Assembly (NCBI RefSeq): GCF_024223415.1
Contig: NZ_CP100500.1
Reading direction: 5' to 3' (one strand)
DNA: 64,000 bases
From: Escherichia coli
Lineage (GTDB): Bacteria > Pseudomonadota > Gammaproteobacteria > Enterobacterales > Enterobacteriaceae
Shown here: piece by piece, positions 4,156 to 53,413 of the stretch
Layout of the letters: each line of letters begins with the position of its first letter
Position numbering within the stretch: the stretch's first letter is position 1
The notes under the pieces: model-generated
Databases searched by the model: none
The model's input: the letters and a program-made list of their open reading frames with translations, nothing else
What the model was told of the DNA's origin: nothing
Translations under genes and position numbers: made by a program

Positions 4156-5058
4156 TTATTGATAAACAAAAGTCACGCCAATAATCGATTGCACATTCCC
4201 TGCAGTCACCTGCCCTCCGGTACGTGCGTAATTTGCCGTTAATCCCAGACTTACCGCCGAAGTTCCTACTGCTCCTAACGATACCGTGTTATTCGCTGGA
4301 ATAATCGTACCGTTGCGCGTCAACTGTACGCCGACGCCCTGCGCTGGTGAAAACGACGCGGTATTGGTGAAAATCGAGTTGCCCGCATCTGCGGTTGTGC
4401 CGGAGAGGTAATACCCCAGGTTTTGGCTTTTCGCACAATAAACGGTAAGAGGAATTGGCACTGAACCAGGGTAGTCCGGCAGAGTAACAGTGACATCACG
4501 AGCAGAAACATCGCAGCCGCCAGTAGGCACCACCACATCATTATTGGCGTAAATATTCCACACAAACTGGAAATCATCGCTGTTATAGTTGTTGGTCTGT
4601 CGCAAAATAAGCACGGCAATTAATGAGCCAGCTTTAATCGCCACCCCGCCCGCACTGCTCACAGGCGTCAAATAAAGCGCCACCGGCCACGGCTTATCCG
4701 TTCTCGAATTATAAACAACCCGCGGCGTTTCGCTGGTGGTCGGAAATGGATAGCTACTGCCACTATATTTTACGGTCCCGGAAAAATTAGATAACACGCC
4801 GCCATAAGCCGAGCCTCGTTGCAGTGTGACATAGTCTGTAATGGTTTCCGGATAATCGTTATGGCAAAAGATTTGCGTCGAAAGATCTACGACCAGGTTT
4901 TGCCCCACATTCACGGCAGGCGCAAGGTTTACATAAACATTAGCGCTGCCACCGCCAATAGGGATAGCGGTACCATTGGCGGTTTTACAGGCGAATGACC
5001 AGGCATTTACCGACCAGCCCATCAGCAGTACAGCAAACAGGGTAATAACTCGTTTCAT
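4156..5058 (-). CDS. fimH: type 1 fimbrial adhesin (mannose-binding tip)
   Basis: 300-aa ORF with signal peptide, mature N-terminus FACKTANGTAIPIGGGSANVYVNL and C-terminal pilin domain ending GVTFVYQ. Confidence 0.95.
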   Translation of the reverse strand: MKRVITLFAVLLMGWSVNAWSFACKTANGTAIPIGGGSANVYVNLAPAVNVGQNLVVDLSTQIFCHNDYPETITDYVTLQRGSAYGGVLSNFSGTVKYSGSSYPFPTTSETPRVVYNSRTDKPWPVALYLTPVSSAGGVAIKAGSLIAVLILRQTNNYNSDDFQFVWNIYANNDVVVPTGGCDVSARDVTVTLPDYPGSVPIPLTVYCAKSQNLGYYLSGTTADAGNSIFTNTASFSPAQGVGVQLTRNGTIIPANNTVSLGAVGTSAVSLGLTANYARTGGQVTAGNVQSIIGVTFVYQ

Positions 5059-5077
5059 TACAATTATCTCTTCGGGT

Positions 5078-5581
5078 TCAGCTGTAGGTATAGGTGATGC
5101 TAATCACTGCCTGAATGGTTCCCTGAGTGGCTCCGCCATTTACCGTCAATGCTCTGACCTGTAACGGGAAGTGCGCTGATTGTGAGGAATCATCCACCTG
5201 AACTGTTTTGGTTGCGCCAGTATTCAATGTGTTGCCACTGTCATCCTGTAGCTCTAACTGGATGTTTTGCGCGGTCCCCTGGTTTTTATAATATCCGGTA
5301 CTGTCGGCTGCCCCGCTGAAGCTGGCAGTGACCCTCGACGTTCCCACCGGACAATTAGTCAACTCAAGCGCAACATCATGCCAGGCCGATGCCGCCCCGG
5401 CAGACATCAGACTGAAAGAATAAAGATCGCCGAGATCAACCATGGCATTGGTGGTGGAAACTGTGCACGGTTTGGCGACGACCTTACCGTTCACCGTGAT
5501 GGTGACATCGGCTGCCTGTATCGTCGCACTTGCGAGCGCCAATATTGCCGCCAATAAATACCCACGTTTGCGCCATTTCAT
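5078..5581 (-). CDS. fimG: type 1 fimbrial minor subunit
   Basis: ORF 5078..5587. The product MKWRKRGYLLAAILALASATIQA... is a pilin fold ending ISITYTYS and sits in the fimG position. The start is taken at the second Met. Confidence 0.9.
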   Translation of the reverse strand: MKWRKRGYLLAAILALASATIQAADVTITVNGKVVAKPCTVSTTNAMVDLGDLYSFSLMSAGAASAWHDVALELTNCPVGTSRVTASFSGAADSTGYYKNQGTAQNIQLELQDDSGNTLNTGATKTVQVDDSSQSAHFPLQVRALTVNGGATQGTIQAVISITYTYS

Positions 5582-5593
5582 GAGCATCTCCAG

Positions 5594-6124
5594 TTACTGA
5601 TATTCAAGAGTGAAGGTAGCCGTGGCATTGATATGCCCCGCAGTGACAGGCACCTGTGTCGCCATTAGCCGGGCGTAAAAATTCAACGTATTTGGTTTAC
5701 CCGGCGTCAGGGTCGTCCACGAAATCGCGGACGATGGAGCATTAAGGGGTATCTGATTTTGCTGCTCATTCAGAAGCTGTATTCCCAGTCCCGAAGCCGC
5801 TGACACCGTATTTTCAAGTGCAAGCAGGTTGGCATTGTGGCTATCTGCAACGCCGGTAAACCCAACCTTTACGGCAGAAACGGCGTTACCACAGGGTGAC
5901 AGCAAAATACGAAATGGAACGACAGGAGTCGTTGCGCCAATGTTGTTAAATTGCTTCGCCGCGTTTTCCATCAAATCAACAGTAAAATTGGTTGATTCAG
6001 CGGCCACACTACAGCCGTTATCTCTGACATAGCCGCGGATAGTAATCGTGCTATCCGCAGCCAAAGCGTGACTCACCGCCAGCCACAAAAAAGCGCACAG
6101 AAGATAAAAAGGTTTGTTTCTCAT
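5594..6124 (-). CDS. fimF: type 1 fimbrial minor subunit
   Basis: [22 protein letters not shown] signal peptide followed by a pilin domain, in the fimF position. Confidence 0.9.
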
Positions 6125-6133
6125 CACGCCCCC

Positions 6134-8770
6134 TTAACGACATTCAGCTGATAGCTGGGTTAATAACTGCTGCTGACTCTCTGGTGGCAGTTGATAATTG
6201 GCGACACAGTGAGCATTTTCCTCTTCTCCCCATTTCACCTGAACTTTTCCCGCTAGAGGCATTCCGCTGAGGTAAACCTGACCATTATCCGCAACAATGC
6301 CGCTACTCTGGCTACTCTCTGATGTCACCATCGCCCCAAACGGCAGCGGCTTATTATTGTGGGTTAGCGTCATGAGCAGTTTTATCCCAACGCGCGCTTT
6401 AAACTCTGCTCGCACGATCGCCCCACGAGTGGGAACAACGTTAGCGACCGCGTTATCTAAATCGACGTTATCAGCCAGGGTATTGGTATCCAGCGCCACT
6501 CTGTTTTCCCGATATTCGGTGGCATAAGGCAGCACGGCATAACCGCGCCAGTCGGTACGCACCCCCGTCTGGTTTTCGACTTTTGCATCTTTTGCGCCAG
6601 GCGCTTTAACAAGCACCACCGTATCGTTTAACGGCTGCCCCAGCGTTACGCCATTGGCATGAGCCAGTACCCCACCGCTGACTCCGTAATAGAGCTGCTT
6701 AATATCATCGCTATGGCTGTAACCGATATTGGCATTGCCGTAACCACCGCGATAATTCAGCGTGGCGTAGCCTGTACTTCCGCTATTACCATCGCCTCCC
6801 CCGGCATAGCCGGTTTGCACGCTATAACTGAGGTTGTTGTCTTCCAGCAACGTACCGTATACACCAGCCAGATTGGTCATCCGACCGTTGAGATCGTGTG
6901 ACATGCTGTAGCTGGCACTGGCATGTCGCCACTGAGATCTACTGTCAGAACGCAGCCAGTGGCTGAAAGGAATATTGACGTTAAGCGCTAACATCTGATC
7001 CCGTCCTTTTTGCCAGGCGTTTTTCGTCAGGCTATAGCTGAGCGTCCAGTTGATATCTTCGAACGCAGTATTTAAACCAGCCTGGAATTGCTCATCGACA
7101 TTACTCGTTCCCCAATAAGTTTGATGGCTACCACTCAAATACAGTGTTGATGTGCGCCCGAGTTGCTGAGTAACGGTGAGCTGTAATTTCCCGCGTTTGT
7201 TATAAGCGAGGTTGTAATAGTCGGTGAATTTCGGCTTAACCTGAATAACTCCATCCTGTGTTTCGATGTTGTAGCCATTCATTCGACTGTATGTTGTATC
7301 AGCGAAATTAAAATATCCGCTGGTCGAATAACGGTAACCCACTAACTGAATATTCGTGCCTGACTCATTGAGCGATTTGTTATAGAGAAAACGCACCGAT
7401 TGTCCGTCATGCTGACTGTCATCGGGAAGTGTGGAATTAGCCTGCGTCATATCCACAGACAGAGCGCCCAGTGCCCCCATGTTTTTCCCGATACCGAAAT
7501 TAAAAGCACGATAACGATCTGCCAGTTGCGTTCCACCATATATTGTCCAGCCAGCCGGAAGGCCGTGGAGTAATGTACTTTGGAAAAAGCGGGGTTTTTC
7601 CTGTTGCGCATTTCCACTACGGTATTCTCCTGCCGTAATGGAATAACGAGTATGCCCTTCACGTTGCAAAAGCGGGACTGACGAATAGGGTACGGTAAAA
7701 ATCTGCGTGCTGCCGTCAGCCTCTTTAATCGTTACCTGCAAGTCACCACTATTACCTGCGGCATAGATATCGTTGATGGTAAAAGGCCCCGGCGGCACCG
7801 TACTATTATAAATGTCATACCCATTTTGTTTAATAGTGACCTGTGCAGTACCACGAGCAATACCGTGGATCACCGGGGCAAATCCTCTTTGGCTATCGGG
7901 TAACATATTGTCATCTGAGGCCAATTGTGCGCCGCGAAAGTTAATACCATCGAAAATATCGCCCTGAGTATAACCATCACCCAGCGTCAGCCGGGAACGT
8001 AACGGTATTATGTCTCGCTCAAGCCAGGTATTGATATGCTGCCATTTATTTTTGCTACCTGATGATCTGTCGCTACTGTTATAACTCCAGGTGGTATTGT
8101 CGCGTAAACGCCACGCACCAATATTTAACCCACTCTGTAGGTTTAAATATGCATAATGGCTGTTACCCCCAATCCGATTCTGTACACTATTTCCGCTGAA
8201 ATTATAATTGAGCAATCCGGCATTAATACCGGGATCCCATAACTCAGGAGGAATATAACCACGCGCGCGATTACTCATAAATGCCTGAGGGATCGTCAGG
8301 TTGAGTCGCTGCTGACCAACATCCAGATGCGCAGTAGCGTCATGGATCATTGAGGTTAATGGCACGCAGGCATCATCCGCCAGCAGATTCATACCGGAGA
8401 CAGAAGCCGTATTCAGCCCCATACTGGCAAGTTGCGCGCGTGTCAGGCAGGGAACAATCCCTTGTTCGCTGTCGCCCGTATTAAATGTGACATCACGCGT
8501 TGCCATATAACCATTATTCAAATAGATATCGACACGATACGTCCCTGGCGGTAATTCTTGCCCATTTTCAAAACGCGATAAATCGGCCACAGCCTGGGGA
8601 TCATCCGCTAAAAAGCGCGGATTAAAATAGAGTTCGGCAGATGACAAAGGTGCCTGTGCGGCAAAAGCACAGGCGACAACGAGCCGGACAAAAAAACCAG
8701 CCAAACGATGCTTACGAATATGCAAGCATTGTGTGTTTCGCTGGTAAAGTCTTAAATTCAGATATGACAT
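6134..8770 (-). CDS. fimD: fimbrial outer-membrane usher
   Basis: 878-aa ORF with usher-type N-terminus and C-terminal Cys pair, in the fimD position. Confidence 0.95.
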   Translation of the reverse strand: MSYLNLRLYQRNTQCLHIRKHRLAGFFVRLVVACAFAAQAPLSSAELYFNPRFLADDPQAVADLSRFENGQELPPGTYRVDIYLNNGYMATRDVTFNTGDSEQGIVPCLTRAQLASMGLNTASVSGMNLLADDACVPLTSMIHDATAHLDVGQQRLNLTIPQAFMSNRARGYIPPELWDPGINAGLLNYNFSGNSVQNRIGGNSHYAYLNLQSGLNIGAWRLRDNTTWSYNSSDRSSGSKNKWQHINTWLERDIIPLRSRLTLGDGYTQGDIFDGINFRGAQLASDDNMLPDSQRGFAPVIHGIARGTAQVTIKQNGYDIYNSTVPPGPFTINDIYAAGNSGDLQVTIKEADGSTQIFTVPYSSVPLLQREGHTRYSITAGEYRSGNAQQEKPRFFQSTLLHGLPAGWTIYGGTQLADRYRAFNFGIGKNMGALGALSVDMTQANSTLPDDSQHDGQSVRFLYNKSLNESGTNIQLVGYRYSTSGYFNFADTTYSRMNGYNIETQDGVIQVKPKFTDYYNLAYNKRGKLQLTVTQQLGRTSTLYLSGSHQTYWGTSNVDEQFQAGLNTAFEDINWTLSYSLTKNAWQKGRDQMLALNVNIPFSHWLRSDSRSQWRHASASYSMSHDLNGRMTNLAGVYGTLLEDNNLSYSVQTGYAGGGDGNSGSTGYATLNYRGGYGNANIGYSHSDDIKQLYYGVSGGVLAHANGVTLGQPLNDTVVLVKAPGAKDAKVENQTGVRTDWRGYAVLPYATEYRENRVALDTNTLADNVDLDNAVANVVPTRGAIVRAEFKARVGIKLLMTLTHNNKPLPFGAMVTSESSQSSGIVADNGQVYLSGMPLAGKVQVKWGEEENAHCVANYQLPPESQQQLLTQLSAECR

Positions 8771-8836
8771 TATTCCTCCGGTTTAAAATCACCCGGCAGT
8801 CAATTCTTTTTATTCAGGCGAAAAATTCCCCCTGCG

Positions 8837-9562
8837 TTATTCCATTACGCCCGTCATTTTGGGGGTAAGTGCGCCATAATCATTTATTGTTCGGTAAGTA
8901 ATATTGCTTCCTGCATCAGAAGGCAATTTAACCGTGCTTTCGCCCATTGGAGGCACCAATGCATTTTCAAGAACCCGGGTTCCGGCATTCAACTCTGTTA
9001 CCGTCAGGTAATAGGGTGTCGGGTTAATCAGCGTCAGAGAATTCGCGCTACGACGAAATCTTAATTTTTCTGCGGCCTGATCGGGTGGCAACGCTAATTT
9101 AGCCGGACGATAGTACAGTTTAATGCGGCTGATAATTGCGAGCTGTAGCGTATTCTCAGTCAATTTTGATTTATCCATTGACGGAATCGCTTTAACGTTC
9201 ATCCAGAATAAACTTTCCCGGTCCTGTGGCAATTGGTTATTTGTTGCATCAAGAATACGCAAGGTATTCTCTTTTTTTCCCTTCATCGCAAACAGAGGAG
9301 GCGTCACGATAAAACGACCATCCTTTACACCATCGGCATTTTCCACCCATGATTGAATTAAATAGGTACTATTTTCATCATTATTTGTCACGGCAAGTTG
9401 CACTTGTTTTTGCCCTGCCGGATAAATTACGCGAGTCGCACCTAAGGCCACTCCCGCTTCAGCGCGTCCGGCAACCATCATTGCCATGAACATCAGGATA
9501 CCTGCCAGCAAGCAGAATATTATTTCCTGCGATTTCCTTACATTGACGTTTTTATTACTCAC
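8837..9562 (-). CDS. fimC: periplasmic fimbrial chaperone
   Basis: 241-aa ORF, PapD-like chaperone (…GVALGATRVIYPAGQKQVQLAVTNNDE…). Confidence 0.95.
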   Translation of the reverse strand: MSNKNVNVRKSQEIIFCLLAGILMFMAMMVAGRAEAGVALGATRVIYPAGQKQVQLAVTNNDENSTYLIQSWVENADGVKDGRFIVTPPLFAMKGKKENTLRILDATNNQLPQDRESLFWMNVKAIPSMDKSKLTENTLQLAIISRIKLYYRPAKLALPPDQAAEKLRFRRSANSLTLINPTPYYLTVTELNAGTRVLENALVPPMGESTVKLPSDAGSNITYRTINDYGALTPKMTGVME

Positions 9563-9598
9563 TGTCCTGTTCCTGTTATCACATTATCTGCTGAACAA

Positions 9599-10138
9599 TT
9601 ACTGATAGGTTAAAGAGAACCAGGCCTGGGCATTGGCGATGCCGCCAGTAACCCGACGCCCGGTAGCACGATATTTGGCGATGAAATGTAGCGAAGTAGA
9701 GCCTGAGTAAAGCCGTTTCCAGTTTGCTGGAGGACGATTAATCGGTACGAGGTTTCCTTCATCATCAAACAACGCTACGCCAATATTGGTGGCTATCCCT
9801 GGCCCCTCTCCCACGGAAAGCACATCCGGATTTTTACCATCCGCGACACCGTGAAACGCCACACCCACACGTTCACTCACCACCGTGCTACATTCCCGTA
9901 AATGAATAACAAAAGGCACCGGTGCGCTATCTTCCCCTACCGCATGAAACCGGTTACTGCTGATTTGCCCCATATTGACCGTCATTTGTTTATCACCGGC
10001 TTCAATCCGGCAAGTTTCCGCAATAATGACGCCCTGAAATTGCATATTTCCGCCGGGCAGCGTGGTATTCCATTTATTTCCGGCCAGAGCAAACATTGGC
10101 AGCAACGACGCTAATAGAAATAATCTCTTCCTTTTCAT
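9599..10138 (-). CDS. fimI: fimbrin-like protein FimI
   Basis: ORF 9599..10270. The start is taken at [19 protein letters not shown] (signal peptide); the C-terminus ends with a pilin-like ...AWFSLTYQ. Confidence 0.85.
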
Positions 10139-10202
10139 CGTTATTTTTATCGCACAAGGGTGGGCATCCCTGCCCGTAATGACGTCCCTGAACCTGGGTA
10201 GG

Positions 10203-10751
10203 TTATTGATACTGAACCTTGAAGGTCGCATCCGCATTAGCTGCGCCAGGGGTTGCGGCACCGGTTGCAAAATAACGCGCCTGGAACGGAATGGTGTTGG
10301 TTCCGTTATTCAGGGTTGTTTGTGCACTAAATGTCGCACCGTCCAGCGCCAGCGCAGCGCCCGTTCTGTCCAGGATCTGCACACCAACTTTTGTTGCGCT
10401 ACCCGCAGCTGAACTCTGCAAAGCTAATACGTTAGGATGAGTGCCATCAATTGCGGTACCAAGGAAGGCAATAGCTGCTTTGTCTGCAACAGTAGTGTCA
10501 CAATCGTTCAGTTGAATGTTAAAACCGACAGCAGAACTGGTTGCTCCTTCTTGTGCCAGCGATGCGGTACGAACCTGTCCTAACTGAACGGTTTGATCAA
10601 CAGAGCCTGCATCAACTGCGCAAGCGGCATTAACAATTTCCCCTTTAAAGTGAACGGTCCCACCATTTACCGTCGTAGTATCGGCCAGAGCCGCTGCGGA
10701 ACTGAGGGACAGAGCCGACAGAACAACGATTGCCAGAGTTTTAATTTTCAT
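10203..10751 (-). CDS. fimA: type 1 fimbrial major subunit
   Basis: Translation from the internal Met reads [23 protein letters not shown]...ATFKVQYQ, the major pilin. The ORF-track start at 10808 is an upstream extension. Confidence 0.95.
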
Positions 10752-10870
10752 GCTGCTTTCCTTTAAAAAAACTATTTCTAAATCGACATGGGCAGTCGTT
10801 CTGTACACTTTGTTTTGTCAACGAGTTTGACTGCCAACACTGCACAGTTTTCCCCCAAAAGATGAAACAT

Positions 10871-11184
10871 TTGGGGCCATTTTGACTCATAGAGGAAAGC
10901 ATCGCGCACAAACTTTTTCAGTTTATTTGTTGGCTTAATATTCTATTGTTATCTTTATTTATAGATTTTTATATTGAATGAGGTGGTTTTTGGAGAGAAG
11001 AATGAGGAAGATGCGTCGAGCCACAGAAACGTTAGCTTTACATATAGCGGAGGTGATGTGAAATTAATTTACAAGAGAAATAATTTACATATCAAACAGT
11101 TAGATGATTTTTGTCGTTTTTTAAGATTTTTATGCTTGAGAAAAAATACGTAACTTATTTATGATATGGACAGTTTGGCCCCAA
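10871..11184. promoter_or_regulatory. fimS: fimS invertible switch (314 bp) bounded by 9-bp inverted repeats ttggggcca (10871-10879) and tggccccaa (11176-11184)
   Basis: Two perfect 9-bp inverted repeats lie exactly 314 bp apart (outer edges) between fimE and fimA. Confidence 0.85.
11136..11165 (+). promoter_or_regulatory. sigma70-like promoter inside fimS (TTGAGA, 18-bp spacer, TATGAT) reading toward fimE, away from fimA
   Basis: TTGAGA at 11136-11141 and TATGAT at 11160-11165 on the plus strand; fimA is on the minus strand at lower coordinates. Confidence 0.55.
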
Positions 11185-11231
11185 TTGTCTTGTATTTATT
11201 TGTTTTTTAACTTTATTATCAATAAGTTAAA

Positions 11232-11828
11232 TCAAACCTCTTCTCTTTTTAATTTTTCGTTTATGAGATTATTTCTTTCCCATAATCCGGCAAAACGAGC
11301 AGCATTACTGGCGGTATAACGTACAGTATGGCGAATATTTCGATGCCCGAGATAATCCTGAATTAAACGAGTATCTGCACCACGCTCCGCCAGTTCATAA
11401 CCGCAAGCATGCCTTAACATATGAGGATGAGTCTGCGTTACGGTTCCAGCTTCAATACCGGCATCACGAATAATGCGATAGGCCTGCTGGCGAGAAAGCC
11501 GACTCCCGCGGCGAGAAATAAATATGGCGTCGGTCCGGTCAGCGCCTTTCCAGTTAGCACGTTCCTGGGTCCAGCGTTCCACGGCTTCACGCTCATCAAA
11601 ACGCAACGGGTGAACGGTAGAAAACCCGTTCTTCAGTCGGCGAATATTTATTCGACCTTCATTAAGGTCAAGATCCTGATAATGCAGATCAAGCAGTTCA
11701 CTAATACGCATCCCATGCCGATATGCCAACAGAATAAGACAATAATCTCTGGCTCCCGTTGCCCCGTAACAAACCGCCTGCATCATGGCCTGAACTTCTT
11801 TACCGGTAAGATAACGACGTTTACTCAC
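11232..11828 (-). CDS. fimE: tyrosine recombinase (ON-to-OFF fim switch recombinase)
   Basis: 198-aa ORF with recombinase motifs (…HPHMLRHACGYELAERGADTRLIQDYLGHRNIRHTVRYT…), immediately upstream of fimS. Confidence 0.95.
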   Translation of the reverse strand: MSKRRYLTGKEVQAMMQAVCYGATGARDYCLILLAYRHGMRISELLDLHYQDLDLNEGRINIRRLKNGFSTVHPLRFDEREAVERWTQERANWKGADRTDAIFISRRGSRLSRQQAYRIIRDAGIEAGTVTQTHPHMLRHACGYELAERGADTRLIQDYLGHRNIRHTVRYTASNAARFAGLWERNNLINEKLKREEV

Positions 11829-12305: not shown

Positions 12306-12908
12306 CTATAAAACAGCGTGACGCTGTCGTCCTCTGGCTCTATCCCAGATGCCGTAAAAACGCCCTGCATTGCTGGCGGTATACCAGACAGTATGACGAA
12401 TATTGCGATGCCCAAGATAATCCTGGATAAGTCGCGTATCTATTCCCATATTCGCCAAAGCAAAACCACACGAATGGCGTAACATGTGCGGATGAATCTC
12501 CAGTGACAACCCGGCATTACCACCGGAAGTCGAGATAATATGGTAAAACTGTTGCCGAGAAAGCGGATTCCCCTTACGCGATAAAAATACCCACTCGCTC
12601 TCAGCATGCGGGTACGAAGTACGGATACTCAACCAGTTTTTTAAAGCCTGAACTTCTTTGTTCAATAGCGGGTGCGTTGTTGAAAAGCCTTTTTTTAATC
12701 GATGGATATATATACACTTTGCCTTAAGATCAATATCCGAAATCCTCAATCGACAAATTTCACTCGCCCGGAAACCATGAATAAAACAAAGCAAAGTCAG
12801 ACAATAATTACGTGCTGCATGAGGCCCGGTATTTGCTGCTTTAAGGAGTGATTCGATTTCACTATGGGTCAGGAAGTTCCTTTTTTTGTTATCAGCCTTA
12901 TTCTTCAT
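12306..12908 (-). CDS. fimB: tyrosine recombinase (bidirectional fim switch recombinase)
   Basis: ORF 12306..12938. The start is taken at MKNKADNKKRNFLTHSEIESLL. It is a paralog of fimE (…HPHMLRHSCGFALANMGIDTRLIQDYLGHRNIRHTVWYT…). Confidence 0.9.
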   Translation of the reverse strand: MKNKADNKKRNFLTHSEIESLLKAANTGPHAARNYCLTLLCFIHGFRASEICRLRISDIDLKAKCIYIHRLKKGFSTTHPLLNKEVQALKNWLSIRTSYPHAESEWVFLSRKGNPLSRQQFYHIISTSGGNAGLSLEIHPHMLRHSCGFALANMGIDTRLIQDYLGHRNIRHTVWYTASNAGRFYGIWDRARGRQRHAVL

Positions 12909-16268: not shown

Positions 16269-17249
16269 ATGAACGCAATAATATCGCCTGATTATTACTA
16301 TGTTCTTACCGTTGCTGGTCAGTCTAATGCCATGGCGTATGGCGAAGGACTGCCATTACCGGACAGGGAAGATGCGCCTCATCCCAGAATTAAACAATTA
16401 GCGAGATTTGCGCATACGCATCCCGGAGGCCCGTCATGTCACTTTAACGACATTATTCCACTGACTCACTGCCCACACGATGTTCAGGATATGCAGGGTT
16501 ATCACCATCCTCTGGCAACGAATCATCAAACACAGTACGGCACCGTTGGCCAGGCACTGCATATTGCACGGAAATTACTGCCCTTTATTCCTGATAACGC
16601 AGGGGTTCTCATCGTTCCGTGTTGCCGTGGCGGATCGGCTTTTACCGCGGGCAGCGAAGGGACATATTCAGAACGGCACGGAGCCAGCCATGATGCTTGT
16701 CGTTGGGGAACGGATACTCCGCTATACCAGGATTTAGTCAGCAGAACGCGAGCCGCATTGGCAAAAAATCCGCAGAACAAATTCCTCGGCGTATGCTGGA
16801 TGCAAGGCGAATTTGACTTAATGACCAGTGACTACGCGTCACACCCTCAACACTTTAATCATATGGTTGAAGCCTTTCGTAGGGATCTAAAACAATACCA
16901 TTCTCAGCTTAATAATATTACTGATGCGCCCTGGTTTTGCGGCGATACCACCTGGTACTGGAAAGAAAATTTCCCTCATGCGTATGAAGCTATTTATGGC
17001 AATTACCAAAATAATGTTTTAGCCAATATTATTTTCGTCGACTTCCAGCAACAAGGTGAAAGAGGACTGACGAACGCGCCTGATGAAGACCCGGACGATT
17101 TAAGCACGGGATATTACGGTTCAGCGTACCGGTCACCGGAGAACTGGACGACGGCACTGAGAAGCAGCCATTTCAGCGCGGCAGCCCGTCGGGGGATTAT
17201 TTCTGACAGGTTTGTAGAAGCAATTTTGCAGTTTTGGCGCGAAAAGTGA
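16269..17249 (+). CDS. nanS: 9-O-acetyl-N-acetylneuraminate esterase
   Basis: ORF 16242..17249, probable start at MNAIISPDYYYVLTVAGQSNAMAYGEG, downstream of nanM. The exact start is uncertain. Confidence 0.85.
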   Translation: MNAIISPDYYYVLTVAGQSNAMAYGEGLPLPDREDAPHPRIKQLARFAHTHPGGPSCHFNDIIPLTHCPHDVQDMQGYHHPLATNHQTQYGTVGQALHIARKLLPFIPDNAGVLIVPCCRGGSAFTAGSEGTYSERHGASHDACRWGTDTPLYQDLVSRTRAALAKNPQNKFLGVCWMQGEFDLMTSDYASHPQHFNHMVEAFRRDLKQYHSQLNNITDAPWFCGDTTWYWKENFPHAYEAIYGNYQNNVLANIIFVDFQQQGERGLTNAPDEDPDDLSTGYYGSAYRSPENWTTALRSSHFSAAARRGIISDRFVEAILQFWREK

Positions 17250-17302
17250 GCGTTCATTAATTTGATTTATTCGCATCCATCAACGCTTTTAACTCCTCCG
17301 GC

Positions 17303-17978
17303 GTGCGGCACTATAACGACTTCCACAACAAGGAGCCATTTTCTTATACCACTTTCAGTGACCATCCGCTTATGCCACCACCCTCTACGCAACTGTTTGC
17401 AGAGCACCTTCCCACCGAGTGGATACAGCACTTCCTGACGCTTTCTGCTCATGCGACCGTTCGTCGTCTTAACCTGAGCGTGGATGGCGAAGCGGGGATG
17501 AACCTGCTGGCGCCCGCAGCGCTGTCACCCAGGCGCGTCAGCGCGTGGGGGCCGCCCCGGTGGAATGGCTCTTCCGCCAGACCGCACAGACATGGGGCGC
17601 GGAACGTTACCTGAAGGATGACTGGCACGGCCTGCAACTTTTTGCCATTGATGGCGCACAGTTCAGGACACCTGATGAACCCGAGCTGCGTGAATATTAT
17701 GGCTCTGCCAACACATCCACTGAGCGGCAGAGCGCCTACCCCGTCATGCGTCTGGTGGCGTTAATGAATCTGGGAATCACATTCTACTGAATGCCATGAC
17801 CGCGCCTACCAGCGGAGCGATACGGCGTGAGGCAACAAAAGCGGCGTCAGAGATCAGCTTTAAGTTCGCGTTCCAGTTTATCGTGACAGAAATGATAGTG
17901 CTGGGAAACACGGCGTCACCGGGGACTATCCCGAAACGACTGGAGCATCTGCGGGGGCTCTGGAAGTGGTGTTCATAA
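17303..17978 (+). pseudogene. IS4-family transposase remnant (fragmented across three frames, internally deleted)
   Basis: Fragments …WLFRQTAQTWGAERYLKDDWHGLQLFAIDGAQFRTPDEPE… and …ASPGTIPKRLEHL… resemble N- and C-terminal parts of IS4-type transposase as recalled. No intact ORF or terminal inverted repeats were identified. Confidence 0.55.
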
Positions 17979-18702
17979 CAAAACGCCCCCGACCATCAAG
18001 GGCGAGGGCGGTTAAGATATCAAAAACCCGTTATCCTGTGAAACACAGTGCCGCCCCGATTAAGTGAACGGCATTGTGTTTCTGAGGGACCTTAATTTTC
18101 CCTGATTCTCTGACGTTCCTTACCATTGATATTTCCTTCATTCCTCACCAGAGAAATAAAAAATCACTATACTCATCAAAATATGAGATTACCTTTATTC
18201 AGGTGATCACCTTACTATTTTTTACGGAAAATAAATTATGAATAACAAGAAATCACTGACAAACCACCTGTAAAATGTCAATCATTTTAGTTCAATTGCC
18301 TTTGTCATGATTATCTTTTTATCGTCCTGACGATACTATTAACAATTGCAATTTTTATACCCCTCCTGAACAAATAGAAAAGAACTAATATATTCGTTTA
18401 TAATTCTGGTAATCCTGGCATCATACGTTTAAAACTTAAGATATTTATTTTATCATCATCATGGTTCCAGAGACTATTGGTCAGCTGGAAATGCCAGCCT
18501 TTTCGTGCCAGCTATATTTGTCCAGTGTGTCACCCCATCCAAAAATCATCCACATCCTGACGTTACGTTAGATATAGAGAAAACAGGTTGTACTGTGCAA
18601 TATGCAAACCGCATAAGCGAATATAATTTCTAAGTTGATATTGTCTGGCTGTTGGGAGCTAAGCAATATAAATATCGCCAGTTGCCAGAACGGTTATATA
18701 GA

Positions 18703-32128: not shown

Positions 32129-34987
32129 TTAACCCTCCGCTCCGGTGATAACAGCAATTACCTGAATGTAGGGTTCTTTTTCAGTCGTCATGGTGTCCTC
32201 AATCCATTCGATATAGCTGTCAAAATTGTGTTCGATTTCGCGTTGTCTCTGCTCTTTACGGCTCTGCTTGACTGACAATTGCTGTTTGTTATCGGCAAAA
32301 TCCAGCTCAAGTTGGCTCAACTGCCGCCCACGCAAAACGTCCAGCTTTTGCAGATGCTCATTCAGTTGCTGGTTAATGTGCGTTTCAAACGCATTCCGAT
32401 CATGGATGAATACCTCCCGGGCATGAGCAATAGCCGCTTCAAGTAAATCCTGCTGGCGTTGGTGATTACGATCTTTACCGCCGCTGTTAGTCAGCTTGTT
32501 ACTCAACTGCGGATGACGTTGTAAAAACTCAGCGAATGGCTGACTGCCGATTAGCGATTCACGGTTAAAGCTCACCACTATCCACGGGTTCACCATCGGA
32601 TGTGATTTACGGTTCGGGAATAACCCGGAAAGAATGAAGTGATCTTCATCGGGTTCAAGCAGGTATGGCAGACGGATAACTGGTGCCTGATGACGACCAA
32701 AAGCCGAAGAGATTTTATCGTCCAGCCACTGCACTACCGGGTTGATTTGCCAGAGATACTGCACATCGGGCCAGGCATGTTGCTCACCGCGAGCGCGCGC
32801 AATCGCGTCGGTGATGACGGTTTTATCCTGACTTAAATAGAGCTGCCAGTTCTCCGGGGCAATTTCAGGCGGTAGCTGGTTGAAGCGGCGGCGTAACTCC
32901 TCCGGAGCCACCAGCGACAAGGTATTATCAGGCAAGGTTTCATACTGGATAGTTTGACCACTGGCTTTCAGGTAACCCAATGCTCTTTCGCAGTACGCCT
33001 GTTCGCTGGCAAACAAGCTGGTGTCTGCTTCGGTGACCATTGAGGCATCGCTGGAAACCGCACTGCATATTTCGCCAAACAGATCGTGTTCGGCGCTTTC
33101 CGAGACGTTGCTGTTCAGCAGTTGATCAAACAGGCTGGCACCATCATCCTGCATCATGAACTCTGCAACCTGCTCTTCTTCCTCTTCCTGGGTAAATTTG
33201 CCGGTAAACTCCGAACTGTCCCCAATGTTCTTCTGCGCCTGTTCGTCTTTGTTGATCAACACTTCCAGTACGCGCATATCGCCATTGATCTGTGGTTCGC
33301 TGGCCTCAGTAAGCAGATAGCGGATTTGAGGCTGATGTTTTTGCCCATAGCGGTCAATACGCCCGTTACGTTGCTGGAATACCATCAACGACCACGGAAT
33401 ATCAAAGTGAATCATTTTGTGGCTAAGGTGATGCAGGTTGATCCCTTCAGATGCCACATCCGAACAAACCAGAAGACGCAACGGCGACTGCGTTTTACCA
33501 AAGGCTTCTACGGTTTCCATCAATACCGTATCGCCCTGATCGCCGCGCAGCGTGGCGATCTGGTCATCTTTCAATTTCAGATCCGCTCGCAGTTGCTGTT
33601 CGAGGAACTCCAGCGTTTTAATACTTTCGGTGAAGATCACCAGGCGATCTTCCGTGTTATTGGCTTTCCAGGCGAGGTCTTTTCGGATGGTGTCGAGCAG
33701 CAACTGGTATTTGCTAAACTGGCTGGCATCAATATTATTCAGCGCCAACAGCAATGACTCCAGTTCGTTGATCTGGCTCTGGCTATTATGATCTTTACGG
33801 CTCTCAAGACGCTTCAGACGATTCGCCACGACGCTGGCACACGCCATCGGGCTGGAAAATAGCGCTTTTTCGAGGGTTATCTTGAACAGACGACCTTTGT
33901 TAGACTGGGCCTGTTCATCGTCATCATCACGGAACTGGCTCTCAACCAGACGACGGTATGCTTCTTCTTCGGCACCGGATGCCAGGCGAGTCAATTTGAC
34001 AATATTGCGCTCGGGAAACTCGCCGGACATCTGATCTTTCACGTCTTTTTTGAAGCGACGGACAACCAGATTTTTATCGGCAAAGTCGGCGTATTCATAC
34101 TCTTTCGGGTTGGCGATCGCCGTCGGGTCAAGCATGTTCATCAGGCTGGCAAAACTTTCAGCCTTACCATCATGCGGCGTTGCTGAAAGCATAATCAGCG
34201 TATCGCTACGCCCGGCGAGCAGTTTTGCCAGTTTACTGCGTAACGAACTGGTTCCACGTTCTGCGACGTTATGGGCCTCATCAATGACAATAATATCCCA
34301 CCAGGCATTTTCCAGATGGTGACGATATTCAATGTCTTGTTTCAGCGTATCGATGGAGATAATGGTCTTGTCAAAATAGTGGAACGGGTTGTGGTTGGTT
34401 GGGATGCGGTTACGCACCTTTTGTAAACCAGCAGAATCCAGGCGGGTCAATGGGATCGCAAAACGGCTCCAGAACTCCTTCTGGAATTGTGTCAGCATCG
34501 ATTTGACCGCCAGAACCAGAATACGTTTTCCGCGCCCACGACGGATCAGCTCCGAAACCAGAATACCCGCTTCCAGTGTTTTACCCAGACCGACAGCGTC
34601 GGCAATGAGTATCCGCTGACGCGGTTGTGCCAGCGCCATCCGCGTAGGATCGAGCTGAAACGGCATGGAATCCATCGCCGCCAGATGACCAAAATGGACT
34701 TTACTGTCTGTCGGTACGCGTTGGCGTAACTGACTTTCGATATACAACTGCGCCGCTTGATAATTGGCGGATTCATCTTCCACCAAATGCGTTTTTGCGG
34801 GATCCAGGATCTCTACTTTTTGTTCCAGTTTGGTCAGAAATAACCCTTCTTTACCGCGCACAAGCTCTGAAATACCATCGCAGGTCAGCAAATACCCACC
34901 ATCACCACTGTCATCCGCCCGGCGAATACGCCATTCGGCATCACGAATAACCACCCGCATACCAGGTGCATAATTTTGCTTATTCAT
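32129..34987 (-). CDS. 952-aa SNF2-family helicase (DrmD-like), first gene of operon
   Basis: SNF2 Walker A LIADAVGLGKTLEAG, DEAH box IIVIDEAHNV, motif III LMLSATPHDG, C-terminal helicase motif …FQQRNGRIDRYGQ. It ends 2 nt before the methyltransferase start. Confidence 0.85.
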   Translation of the reverse strand: MNKQNYAPGMRVVIRDAEWRIRRADDSGDGGYLLTCDGISELVRGKEGLFLTKLEQKVEILDPAKTHLVEDESANYQAAQLYIESQLRQRVPTDSKVHFGHLAAMDSMPFQLDPTRMALAQPRQRILIADAVGLGKTLEAGILVSELIRRGRGKRILVLAVKSMLTQFQKEFWSRFAIPLTRLDSAGLQKVRNRIPTNHNPFHYFDKTIISIDTLKQDIEYRHHLENAWWDIIVIDEAHNVAERGTSSLRSKLAKLLAGRSDTLIMLSATPHDGKAESFASLMNMLDPTAIANPKEYEYADFADKNLVVRRFKKDVKDQMSGEFPERNIVKLTRLASGAEEEAYRRLVESQFRDDDDEQAQSNKGRLFKITLEKALFSSPMACASVVANRLKRLESRKDHNSQSQINELESLLLALNNIDASQFSKYQLLLDTIRKDLAWKANNTEDRLVIFTESIKTLEFLEQQLRADLKLKDDQIATLRGDQGDTVLMETVEAFGKTQSPLRLLVCSDVASEGINLHHLSHKMIHFDIPWSLMVFQQRNGRIDRYGQKHQPQIRYLLTEASEPQINGDMRVLEVLINKDEQAQKNIGDSSEFTGKFTQEEEEEQVAEFMMQDDGASLFDQLLNSNVSESAEHDLFGEICSAVSSDASMVTEADTSLFASEQAYCERALGYLKASGQTIQYETLPDNTLSLVAPEELRRRFNQLPPEIAPENWQLYLSQDKTVITDAIARARGEQHAWPDVQYLWQINPVVQWLDDKISSAFGRHQAPVIRLPYLLEPDEDHFILSGLFPNRKSHPMVNPWIVVSFNRESLIGSQPFAEFLQRHPQLSNKLTNSGGKDRNHQRQQDLLEAAIAHAREVFIHDRNAFETHINQQLNEHLQKLDVLRGRQLSQLELDFADNKQQLSVKQSRKEQRQREIEHNFDSYIEWIEDTMTTEKEPYIQVIAVITGAEG

Positions 34988-35210: not shown

Positions 35211-38200
35211 TTATCCAGCGATAATATAACTCCTAAGGTCATTACCCGGGGCAACAGCTCGCGCTCGCGTGTTTGCCAGCCGTTCAACTTGCTGCGGTAC
35301 TCGCAGGGCAAAATCAAAGAAGGTATCTTCAATACAGCGCCAGTAGCTAAGCCCCATGTCGAGCAGGACATAATGCTGACTGCCATCGCTGAAGGTGACT
35401 GTCAGTTCTCGTCCATGCTCCGTACTCTGGTTATCCCCCGTTAACCAGCTAATTGCTCCCGGCCACGCAGGCCCCAGATATCCTTCTTCAAGTAAAGTGG
35501 TCACAACCTGCTGACGATCTTCCTCATTAAGCCACGCGTTATAGAGAGCGTCGTGTTGGCGAGAGTTGTAATCCAATTTTTTGACGCAAACAGTGAGGCT
35601 GGCGCGTTCCGCCATTCCCTGTTCAACCAGCTCGGTTAAGATTTCACCTAACAAACGCGCCGTGAATGGGCTATTAAGATAACGATCGCTGTACTCAACA
35701 TGCGTTATCTCTTTGTGGCGGGTAAATGCCTGCTTCCAGCCAGCGTGCTGTTGCGTGACTAACGACCAGAAACGCGAACCAAAACCTTCCAGCGGCCCGT
35801 CCAGTTGTTCACAGAGATTGATGCGCACCGCCCCGGTGGGTAAGGCGGGCAGTAAATCTTCTGCACTTAAGGTCTGACCCGAGAAGTTTTTTCCGGACGT
35901 TCCTTTAAGTGTCACTACTGGTGAAGACGCACTTTGTCCCCATAATTCACCAGGGGCAACGGTAGCGCTGTCGTCTGCGGCCCACTGTTGGCTTTGCCCT
36001 TCGCGAGTCACCTGCGCAAGCCAGCGCCCCTTTCCTTGCATGAGTTGCGCAGTGGCAATGGATTTCACTTGTAAGCGTCCTCCCGGCATCGCCGCCAACG
36101 CGGAAAGCTGATGTCTGGAGCTATCAGTTAAGTTTTCCAGCGGCGTGGCCACCAGCAACTCAACATTCCCACCGGAGGAGGCAAACTGGAGCAACTCTTT
36201 AAATAATGGCCATTGGGCAAAGTCCCACTGTTCCTGCGGCCCCGCAAGAACCAGCGAGCAGGAGTCATAAATCTCGCTGTTCAGGCATTGCGCAATACGT
36301 AAACTCAGAGGGTTAGTTTCAACCCGGCTACCATCGCCGAAGTACTGATATTCTGGCGCGAGGTTAAGTCGCTGCAACCGTACATTGGTAAGCAGGGTTA
36401 ATGCATGGTGACGATCTAATCTGTTGACATAATGCTGACTGTCGTAGCTGAGCAAGCAGTGGTGACAAAATTTATCGCAACTGCAATCGAGCAATTTTCT
36501 GGCGTAATTAAAGACATCAGCCCAATGGTCGATCAATTGCACTGCATAACCTGCACCACCCGCATTATTGTCGTATATGAAGATGGAATATCCGGTATAG
36601 CCATTGATATCGCGCGCTTGCTGCGTCGTCACGCCCAGCTCAGTATTTTCGATACCCAATTTATGCGCTAACCCTTCACGCAAAGCGACCGCAAGGGAAC
36701 GCGCGGCAACCTCATCACGGATCAACAGGCCATTATCATCATTGAGTTGCAGCTCAACCATATCTGTACGACTGCTATATCCCAACCACAGATCTTTATG
36801 CACATGACCGTGGCACAATTTATTGCTCCCCTGACGATCGTTACTGCCCCCTCGCAACAGGTAATGCGTATTTTCCCGCTCTGGGTTCTTTAGATTTTCA
36901 GGGGTACGCTGGGGTTGAGTTTGAGATTCTGCCCGACCACATGAGAGGCAAATTGCGTAGCCGTGCCCAAATTCCCCTTCACTGAAGTGGAACAATTCCC
37001 CACTATGGCTAAAACGGTAACGTCCTAGCCCAGCATCGGGTAAAGAAACCCACACCGAAGACGGTACAAGAACACGTGGATCTTTCCAAGGAAGTTGTGC
37101 AGGCATGGATACATCATTATGTGCCTGATAACGAATATCTGTCGCAAAACCAACAGGCTGTAAATAACGCTTCACATCAAGTTGCTGTATATCCGCTTTG
37201 CAGTGACTACATTCGACAGGACGGGTAGTACTGGTTGCCCCCGCACCACATTTACGGCAATGCCAGAACCACGGAATGTGATGATCGCCTGACAGCTCCT
37301 GCCCGCTGGCAAGTACCTTGCCAAGCATAATGCCCGAGGAACGATATACTTTTCCGCCCAATACCACATCTGCACCAGGCGCATACTCGCGTAATGCTGT
37401 AGGTAGATCACGGCTGGGCAATTTTTCAATACGACGAGAAAAGCTTTCTCCCCCTTCATTAGGGTCAGCCTGAGTAGCTTTTATTGCACGACGTTTTTCC
37501 AGCTCATCTGCCGTCAGATAATTGAAATTGACGACGCCAACCGGGAAACCATGCCCCGGCAGGAACGCTTCACTAATGAGTTTAGAAAACAGATATGCAC
37601 CGCGATAATCACGAAGCTGATAAGCGATGGCTTTACCTGCTGGCGTTTCTTCCCACGCGCTGTTATCCGCCTTCAACGCTTCGATATTTTCCAACAGTAT
37701 CGCAAGTTGGCTTCTCCAGCGGATATCAACCTGCTGCATCATTGCTTGTGTGCGGGTCAAGAGCTGGGTTGCCGTCAATGACTTCAGGACGGTTCCCTGA
37801 GTAAGGCGTTTAAGTTTATCCGCCAGCTCATCGGCCTGGTGATTTAACCAATGAAGAAAACGAAGACACTGGCTCTCATCACCTTCAAAGAACCATTTGC
37901 AACTCAGTTTTGTCGCATCAGGTACTTCAGCTCGTAAAAACAGACCTAAAACCAGGGCATTAACATGTCGTTGAACAATACTACTGCTCCCAAAACGAAC
38001 CCGTGGCGCACTGGCAGTAGTGTTGAACGCCCAGAGGGGGTCTTTGAATACCTCCATTCCATGCGCCGTGTTTTTACATAACGTAATGGCAGCAGATGCA
38101 CTCTCTCCACGACGCCCCGCGCGACCTGCACGCTGCAAATAATTTGCCGGCGCTGGAGGAACGTTGTTCATTGCCACCAAACTCATACCACCAATATCCA

Positions 38201-38693
38201 CCCCCATCTCCATGGTCGTGGAACAGTTCAGCACATTAACTTTGCCTGACTTAAATTGTTTTTCATTAAACTGGTTCTGCTCAGGCGTTCTCTGCGCAGA
38301 GTGTTCCTCCAGACGATACCAGCTATCTTTCAGGGCCAGTCGGTCGCTGCGAGTAGACCATAATCCTTCCTCGCGGGCATGTTGAATCAGCGCATTACTT
38401 TCCAGCCACTCCAGACGTTCTTCTCGGGCGATTTCTCCACCACCAGACAAACGCCAGTGACGTACAGGAAGCTCAGGCATTTCAATCAACACTGCTTTTT
38501 CAGGTGCAATTTCTTTGCTACCCGGCAAATACGGAGAGTATCCCAGCAACGTGACGTCTAACGCACGTCGAGTATAGGGGCAACGCCACACTTGCTTTGG
38601 ACTGTAAAATTCAGCCTGTTGTTTAATATCCAGCTGATAACCCGACTCAAACTGACGTAAGCAGGGTCGAATTGCATCCCAGACCTCAATCAT
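35211..38693 (-). CDS. C-terminal segment (1160 aa) of a DruE-like giant helicase; frame open upstream to the A7 tract at 38830-38836
   Basis: Helicase motif VI …ANYLQRAGRAGRRGE… near its N-terminus (matching the C-terminal lobe of the upstream ORF), then Cys clusters (CRKCGAG…CSHCKAD, CLSCGRAES, CSCDKFCHHC). Architecture parallels the 2113-aa protein. Confidence 0.7.
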   Translation of the reverse strand: MIEVWDAIRPCLRQFESGYQLDIKQQAEFYSPKQVWRCPYTRRALDVTLLGYSPYLPGSKEIAPEKAVLIEMPELPVRHWRLSGGGEIAREERLEWLESNALIQHAREEGLWSTRSDRLALKDSWYRLEEHSAQRTPEQNQFNEKQFKSGKVNVLNCSTTMEMGVDIGGMSLVAMNNVPPAPANYLQRAGRAGRRGESASAAITLCKNTAHGMEVFKDPLWAFNTTASAPRVRFGSSSIVQRHVNALVLGLFLRAEVPDATKLSCKWFFEGDESQCLRFLHWLNHQADELADKLKRLTQGTVLKSLTATQLLTRTQAMMQQVDIRWRSQLAILLENIEALKADNSAWEETPAGKAIAYQLRDYRGAYLFSKLISEAFLPGHGFPVGVVNFNYLTADELEKRRAIKATQADPNEGGESFSRRIEKLPSRDLPTALREYAPGADVVLGGKVYRSSGIMLGKVLASGQELSGDHHIPWFWHCRKCGAGATSTTRPVECSHCKADIQQLDVKRYLQPVGFATDIRYQAHNDVSMPAQLPWKDPRVLVPSSVWVSLPDAGLGRYRFSHSGELFHFSEGEFGHGYAICLSCGRAESQTQPQRTPENLKNPERENTHYLLRGGSNDRQGSNKLCHGHVHKDLWLGYSSRTDMVELQLNDDNGLLIRDEVAARSLAVALREGLAHKLGIENTELGVTTQQARDINGYTGYSIFIYDNNAGGAGYAVQLIDHWADVFNYARKLLDCSCDKFCHHCLLSYDSQHYVNRLDRHHALTLLTNVRLQRLNLAPEYQYFGDGSRVETNPLSLRIAQCLNSEIYDSCSLVLAGPQEQWDFAQWPLFKELLQFASSGGNVELLVATPLENLTDSSRHQLSALAAMPGGRLQVKSIATAQLMQGKGRWLAQVTREGQSQQWAADDSATVAPGELWGQSASSPVVTLKGTSGKNFSGQTLSAEDLLPALPTGAVRINLCEQLDGPLEGFGSRFWSLVTQQHAGWKQAFTRHKEITHVEYSDRYLNSPFTARLLGEILTELVEQGMAERASLTVCVKKLDYNSRQHDALYNAWLNEEDRQQVVTTLLEEGYLGPAWPGAISWLTGDNQSTEHGRELTVTFSDGSQHYVLLDMGLSYWRCIEDTFFDFALRVPQQVERLANTRARAVAPGNDLRSYIIAG

Positions 38694-38755
38694 TAAGTGG
38701 TTAACTAACGATTTCCAGTGAGCCTGCTCAGGTTGTATTGCCGGAAAGACTGCGA

Positions 38756-53328: not shown

Positions 53329-53413
53329 TGGTGCCGAAGGCCGGACTCGAACCGGCACGTATTTCTACGGTTGATTTTGAATCAACTGCGTCTACCGATT
53401 TCGCCACTTCGGC
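53329..53413 (-). tRNA. leuX: tRNA-Leu (anticodon CAA)
   Basis: Reverse complement reads GCCGAAGTGGCGAAATCGGTAGACGCAGTTGATTCAAAATCAACCGTAGAAATACGTGCCGGTTCGAGTCCGGCCTTCGGCACCA, with anticodon loop TTCAAAA and a T-run downstream. Confidence 0.95.

Follow-up and report, generated by a model that had tools for sequence, protein, structure and literature searches.

In which orientation does the fim switch of this E. coli sequence lie, and how much does that orientation say about the strain? The window, the whole 64,000-nucleotide stretch of contig NZ_CP100500.1 (assembly GCF_024223415.1) analysed here, carries a short element between fimE and fimA that the original prediction had taken for an intact fimS in phase OFF. 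The element is almost certainly the canonical E. coli fim phase-variation switch, captured by the assembly in phase OFF, and we found no evidence that contradicts this explanation. The OFF call is correct but ordinary, as OFF is the commonest state and the default. The finding itself is already known, belongs to textbook biology and advances no open question.

The fim locus and the identity of the element

The fim genes lie on the minus strand in the order fimB, fimE, a 480-bp intergenic region, fimA, fimI, fimC, fimD, fimF, fimG and fimH. They were called from the open reading frames of the window together with the annotation of the NCTC10444 record, which is collinear and near-identical. K-12 MG1655 has the same gene order, and the fimB-fimE-fimS-fimAICDFGH synteny is complete. 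fimS sits in the fimE-fimA intergenic region, with fimB upstream and fimICDFGH downstream. Reading frames and annotation agree with the original prediction that fimA is on the minus strand and on the opposite side of the element from fimE; both genes are on that strand and flank fimS. Both recombinase genes are intact. FimB (200 aa) and FimE (198 aa) are each identical to the MG1655 protein, and the bias of FimE is towards switching from ON to OFF (PMC2647292). The positions of all features are collected in Table 1.

Table 1. Features of the fim locus in the window, with the basis on which each was placed
Feature	Position	Strand	Basis and remarks
fimS	10871-11184		314-bp invertible element including both repeats; assembled phase-OFF
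IRR	10871-10879		fimA-proximal 9-bp inverted repeat, TTGGGGCCA
IRL	11176-11184		fimE-proximal 9-bp inverted repeat; the plus strand reads TGGCCCCAA, the gene direction TTGGGGCCA
fimB	12306-12908	-	ORF; NCTC10444 annotation; tyrosine recombinase, inverts fimS both ways
fimE	11232-11828	-	ORF; NCTC10444 annotation; tyrosine recombinase, ON-to-OFF bias
fimA	10203-10751	-	ORF; NCTC10444 annotation; major type 1 fimbrial subunit, 182 aa
fimI, fimC, fimD, fimF, fimG, fimH	4156-10138	-	NCTC10444 annotation and ORFs; 3' of fimA in the operon
PfimA candidate	11136-11165	+	-35 TTGAGA 11136-11141, 18-nt spacer, -10 TATGAT 11160-11165
Weak sigma-70-like match	11095-11066	-	TTGATA-18-TAAATT, 9/12; promoter scan; chance level by shuffle control
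IHF consensus match TATCAATAAGTTA	11217-11229	+	Match to WATCAANNNNTTR; position of IHF site I, outside fimS beside IRL
IHF consensus match TATCAAACAGTTA	11090-11102	+	Match to WATCAANNNNTTR; position of IHF site II, inside fimS
Fis binding site core CCAACAAA	10926-10933	-	Bases changed in the published mutagenic oligo FBSFOR2
SnaBI site TACGTA, unique	11147-11152		In the promoter spacer; asymmetric, usable for an orientation assay
BstUI site CGCG, unique	10903-10906		fimA side, the OFF position; published orientation assay
HinfI site GACTC, unique	10884-10888		fimA side, the OFF position; published orientation assay

Two small features of these genes were recorded in passing. The 35-nt small RNA fimR2 of K-12, annotated in MG1655 directly 3' of fimA, has an exact copy at 10158-10192 on the minus strand, between fimA and fimI. 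Leucine is encoded by TTG at six codons in fimB and at two in fimE.

The original prediction had described an intact 314-bp element with inverted repeats at its two ends. Every coordinate it gave is correct, and the repeats are perfect, TGGCCCCAA being the exact reverse complement of TTGGGGCCA. A 9-bp inverted repeat is in itself statistically unremarkable: across the 651 bases of the region, the repeat finder returns 13 inverted pairs that are 8 nt or longer. Sigma-70-like matches are not above expectation either in this AT-rich DNA, with three found and 2.0 +/- 1.5 in shuffled sequences. Since repeat and promoter motifs both stand at chance level, the element is assigned to fimS by homology and synteny, not by motif statistics. 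Rfam gave no match at fimS, and its sole match in the whole window is a tRNA.

The homology is close. MG1655 (NC_000913.3) carries the same element at the same locus, between fimE (b4313) and fimA (b4314), with the same gene order, length, repeats and orientation; 308 of the 314 positions of fimS are identical, and the 651-bp region as a whole is 98% identical. The window differs from MG1655 by the six base substitutions inside fimS, by one fewer A in the spacer between fimE and IRL, and by a divergent fimA allele whose product has 14 amino-acid differences from the K-12 protein. The fimS of uropathogenic UTI89 is collinear, lies OFF like that of the window and is slightly more divergent (302/314 identical, same orientation); the island content flanking it differs. 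Other switches share the logic of a short promoter segment bounded by short inverted repeats with recombinases adjacent: ipuS/hyxS of UPEC, the Klebsiella fimS and the Proteus mrp switch all work by promoter inversion through FimB-family tyrosine recombinases (PMC6458436, PMC6083910). By their descriptions, these belong to other loci, with other repeats and other target operons, whereas the element in the window is fimS itself.

Orientation of the element

We read the orientation with assays that are published, have been calibrated on phenotypically ON and OFF bacteria, and are independent of the promoter hexamers. In the first, PCR with the Dorman-lab primers OL4 and OL20 is followed by BstUI digestion, which gives 539 + 187 bp for OFF and 433 + 293 bp for ON (PMC9993118). 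The window contains exact matches to both primers, and its in-silico product of 727 bp is cut into 188 + 539 bp. Inverting fimS in silico changes this to 434 + 293 bp; the same assay on MG1655 gives 540 + 188 bp. In the second, the 650-bp product of CMD1258 and CMD1259 is cut by HinfI into 411 + 239 bp for OFF and 522 + 128 bp for ON (PMC6727828). From the window we obtain a 650-bp product that is cut into 414 + 236 bp, or 519 + 131 bp once fimS is inverted. The in-silico and published fragments are 1-3 bp apart, owing to strain indels or to how the cut position is counted, and this offset is far smaller than the 106-283 bp that separate the ON and OFF patterns. A restriction assay had been proposed in the original prediction; run here in silico, it returns the OFF pattern with either enzyme.

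The reference genome of UTI89 carries fimS in the OFF orientation (PMC6458436), and the window is collinear through fimS with UTI89 (NC_007946.1) and with MG1655. A distance of 50 bp has been given between the Fis binding site and the repeat at the "promoter-distal end" of the element (PMC9993118). In the window the FBSFOR2 oligo has an exact match at 10913-10948 on the minus strand, and the Fis block itself lies 47-54 bp from the fimA-side repeat. The OFF assignment is thus supported by four lines, namely the BstUI digest, the HinfI digest, reference collinearity and the Fis site, all of which say OFF, as the original prediction had claimed. A published 135-bp probe for the right end in phase OFF, for which one primer lies within fimS and the other beyond it, is also reproduced at exactly 135 bp in the window orientation.

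Genomes with the opposite orientation were sought by querying a collection of complete genomes with the window sequence after fimS had been inverted artificially. This query is matched end to end by 248 complete E. coli genomes; in 4457, at least 80% of the uninverted 651-bp query aligns collinearly. With about 15 partial matches the total comes to 4720 complete E. coli genomes, so that 4705 can be scored, about 95% of them OFF and about 5% ON. The near-identical strain NCTC10444 is among those that lie OFF. Inversion of fimS is therefore visible at the level of the population, with 4457 and 248 genomes in opposite orientations between identical flanks.

One of the 248, A16 (NZ_CP028758.1), served for the comparison with an ON-phase fimS that the original prediction had suggested. 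Its flanks are identical to those of the window. Its fimS is the same element, with the segment between the repeats reverse-complemented relative to the window: only 95 of 314 positions agree as assembled, and 311 of 314 agree after inversion. In A16 the TTGAGA-18-TATGAT motif faces fimA. The comparison supports the OFF call of the original prediction.

Promoter, regulatory sites and alternative readings

According to the original prediction, the only strong sigma-70-like promoter inside fimS reads on the plus strand toward fimE. The promoter scan confirmed the site and its direction. TTGAGA-18-TATGAT is the sole 10/12 sigma-70 match in 10600-11400. The end of its -10 hexamer is 10 bp away from the repeat on the fimE side, and the site is directed at IRL and the fimE 3' end, away from fimA. 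The word "strong" is essential here: two weaker promoter-like matches of 9/12 also lie inside fimS, and a plain "only" does not hold. Transcription from the candidate would be expected to start at about 11170-11172. TTGAGA and TATGAT are probably the PfimA hexamers, reportedly mapped by Olsen and Klemm (1994); the conserved position of the candidate speaks for equating it with mapped PfimA. No relevant text came up in a full-text literature search for these hexamers in connection with fimA. On the broader claim of the original prediction, that the fimA promoter resides within fimS and drives fimA only in the ON orientation, the literature is in agreement (PMC2647292).

The candidate regulatory sites are where they would be expected. 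IHF-1 adjoins IRL and IHF-2 lies within fimS (PMC9993118), and the two putative IHF matches in the window probably correspond to these sites, judging by their sequence and position. No intrinsic terminator was found in 10600-11400. The absence of such a terminator-like hairpin fits the Rho-dependent terminator of the literature (PMC2647292, PMC9993118).

The mechanism proposed for the locus follows established knowledge. fimS contains the fim operon's promoter, which faces fimA in ON and is disconnected from it in OFF; FimB inverts the element both ways, FimE acts mainly from ON to OFF, and the architecture of the recombination complex is influenced by IHF, Lrp, Fis and H-NS (PMC2647292, PMC9993118, PMC11316696, PMC2636892). 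Only in the OFF orientation does a Rho-dependent terminator within fimS make the fimE mRNA shorter and less stable (PMC2647292, PMC9993118). In the window, FimB (in both directions) and FimE (from ON to OFF) would invert the 314-bp fimS with the aid of IHF, Lrp, Fis and H-NS, and fimS would carry the sole promoter of the fimAICDFGH operon. As assembled, the promoter beside the fimE-proximal repeat is predicted to fire on the plus strand toward the fimE 3' end. With the promoter facing fimE, the minus-strand structural genes would be left without one, and a cell with such DNA would be expected to make no type 1 fimbriae. fimE transcripts that read into fimS in the OFF orientation would probably meet the Rho-dependent terminator, which would lower FimE.

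A further feature of the same stretch is a 16-nt imperfect inverted repeat, 88% complementary, in which 11151-11166 pairs with 11214-11229. It links the PfimA -10 region within fimS to the IHF-site-I consensus outside IRL, and it is present only in the OFF orientation. In AT-rich DNA it may be due to chance.

How far the assembled orientation describes the strain is a separate question. There is an even chance that it was an arbitrary or consensus pick from mixed ON and OFF reads, and that it reports the majority molecule rather than a strain property. In wild-type strains with intact fimB and fimE, inversion of fimS is frequent enough to be measured (PMC2647292), and both genes are intact in the window. 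Sequencing libraries can hold both orientations (PMC6458436), and both occur among the complete genomes (4457 vs 248). This possibility stands alongside the OFF call and is no argument against it, as OFF remains the orientation of the assembled molecule. For an invertible promoter, the orientation that an assembly shows is that of most of a culture at one moment and not a fixed genotype, and one sequence is silent on the fraction of cells that are ON. If RNA-seq reads or variant callers were run against this reference, ON cells would appear as an inversion.

Two further readings of the OFF state are very improbable. PfimA could drive a transcript antisense to the 3' end of fimE that helps to set FimE levels and hence the time spent in OFF, or the weak minus-strand match could provide basal fim transcription in OFF. 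The putative antisense transcript would run from about 11170 across IRL into 11232 and onward, convergent with fimE. The weak match, at 11066-11095, does face fimA in the OFF orientation, and it overlaps the IHF-II consensus. Orientation-dependent control of fimE has been attributed to the Rho-dependent terminator (PMC2647292, PMC9993118), and inactivating PfimA leaves the switch biasing of FimB unchanged (PMC2647292). The idea of a regulatory antisense PfimA has little in its favour, and published results speak partly against it (PMC2647292).

The switch could also be locked OFF genetically, by a fimS deletion of the EHEC O157:H7 type or by inactivated recombinases, rather than merely resting. 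We regard this as very unlikely. EHEC O157:H7 is reported to be locked OFF by a deletion in fimS. There are precedents for locking in both EHEC, where regulatory mutations lock fimS OFF, and ST131, where fimB is inactivated (PMC6458436), and the fimS of the window does differ from that of K-12 at six bases. However, the element has its full length of 314 bp and both 9-bp repeats are exact. The two recombinases share 100% of their sequence with the functional proteins of K-12, and IHF consensus matches occur at both expected positions. The A16 element, identical at 311/314 positions, was assembled ON, which argues that nearly the same allele does invert. Given the full-length element, the exact repeats and the K-12-identical recombinases, we rejected a lock by deletion or by recombinase inactivation. 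Nothing in the sequence suggests a lock of the switch, and the fim operon appears intact and switch-competent.

That fimS is really ON, with the true fimA promoter another minus-strand element near the fimA-side repeat and TTGAGA/TATGAT a chance occurrence, is exceedingly improbable: promoter-like matches do occur at chance frequency (3 found vs 2.0 +/- 1.5 expected) and one 9/12 minus-strand match (11095 to 11066) does face fimA, but both published restriction assays return OFF fragments, the window aligns collinearly with UTI89, a reference explicitly described as OFF, and the Fis site called promoter-distal sits at the fimA end. The original prediction had named a minus-strand fimA promoter near 10880-10960 as the finding that would count against OFF; the scan finds no minus-strand promoter-like site in 10880-10960, and the BstUI and HinfI in-silico assays refute an ON element with a different promoter.

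With the canonical switch in phase OFF as the preferred reading, the consequence for annotation, and for predicting fimbriation from the genome, is that the fim operon should be recorded as intact and switch-competent and the assembled molecule as non-expressing. Most E. coli assemblies are in this non-expressing state, among them the reference genomes of K-12 and UTI89.

The defence island and leuX

Beyond the fim locus, the window remains collinear with NCTC10444 up to 53352, with 15 substitutions and three single-base indels. Collinearity ends inside a leuX-type tRNA-Leu gene (anticodon CAA) at 53329-53413 on the minus strand. Beyond leuX, the window continues as core genome, and NCTC10444 carries a CP4-like island with CbtA/YeeU toxin-antitoxin genes. 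Divergence inside leuX fits the role of leuX as an island integration site.

An anti-phage defence island of about 31 kb occupies 18743-49980, between the nanC/nanM/nanS-remnant genes and leuX. At 16491-18067, the remnant of a truncated sialate O-acetylesterase gene (nanS) and a transposase with a frameshift mark its left boundary, both as annotated in collinear NCTC10444. The island holds a UvrD/GajB-like helicase, a 2113-aa DruE-like helicase whose C-terminal part includes a ZorE-like HNH stretch, a 1643-aa type IIG restriction-methyltransferase (DrmMI-like) and a DrmD-like helicase, together with Druantia type III (DruE, DruH), Zorya type II (zorA2, zorB2, zorE) and an HNH/phosphorothioated-DNA restriction endonuclease. 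Besides Druantia and Zorya, the island has a further helicase/methyltransferase cluster. The first four of the genes listed match no single named PADLOC system.

Two helicase genes of the island differ between the window and NCTC10444. The Druantia type III DruE-like helicase gene (35211-41533, minus strand) is a single 2104-aa ORF in NCTC10444. In the window it is split into ORFs of 1160 and 925 aa, with the break at about 38693-38829, because of a 1-bp deletion at about 38829 that NCTC10444 lacks; the deletion is either a sequencing error in a homopolymer or a genuine frameshift that inactivates the gene. The DrmD-like SNF2 helicase gene (32129-34987, minus strand) is an intact 952-aa ORF in the window and is annotated as frameshifted in NCTC10444, with a 1-bp difference at window position 34386. 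Each of the two near-identical assemblies therefore has a different broken defence gene.
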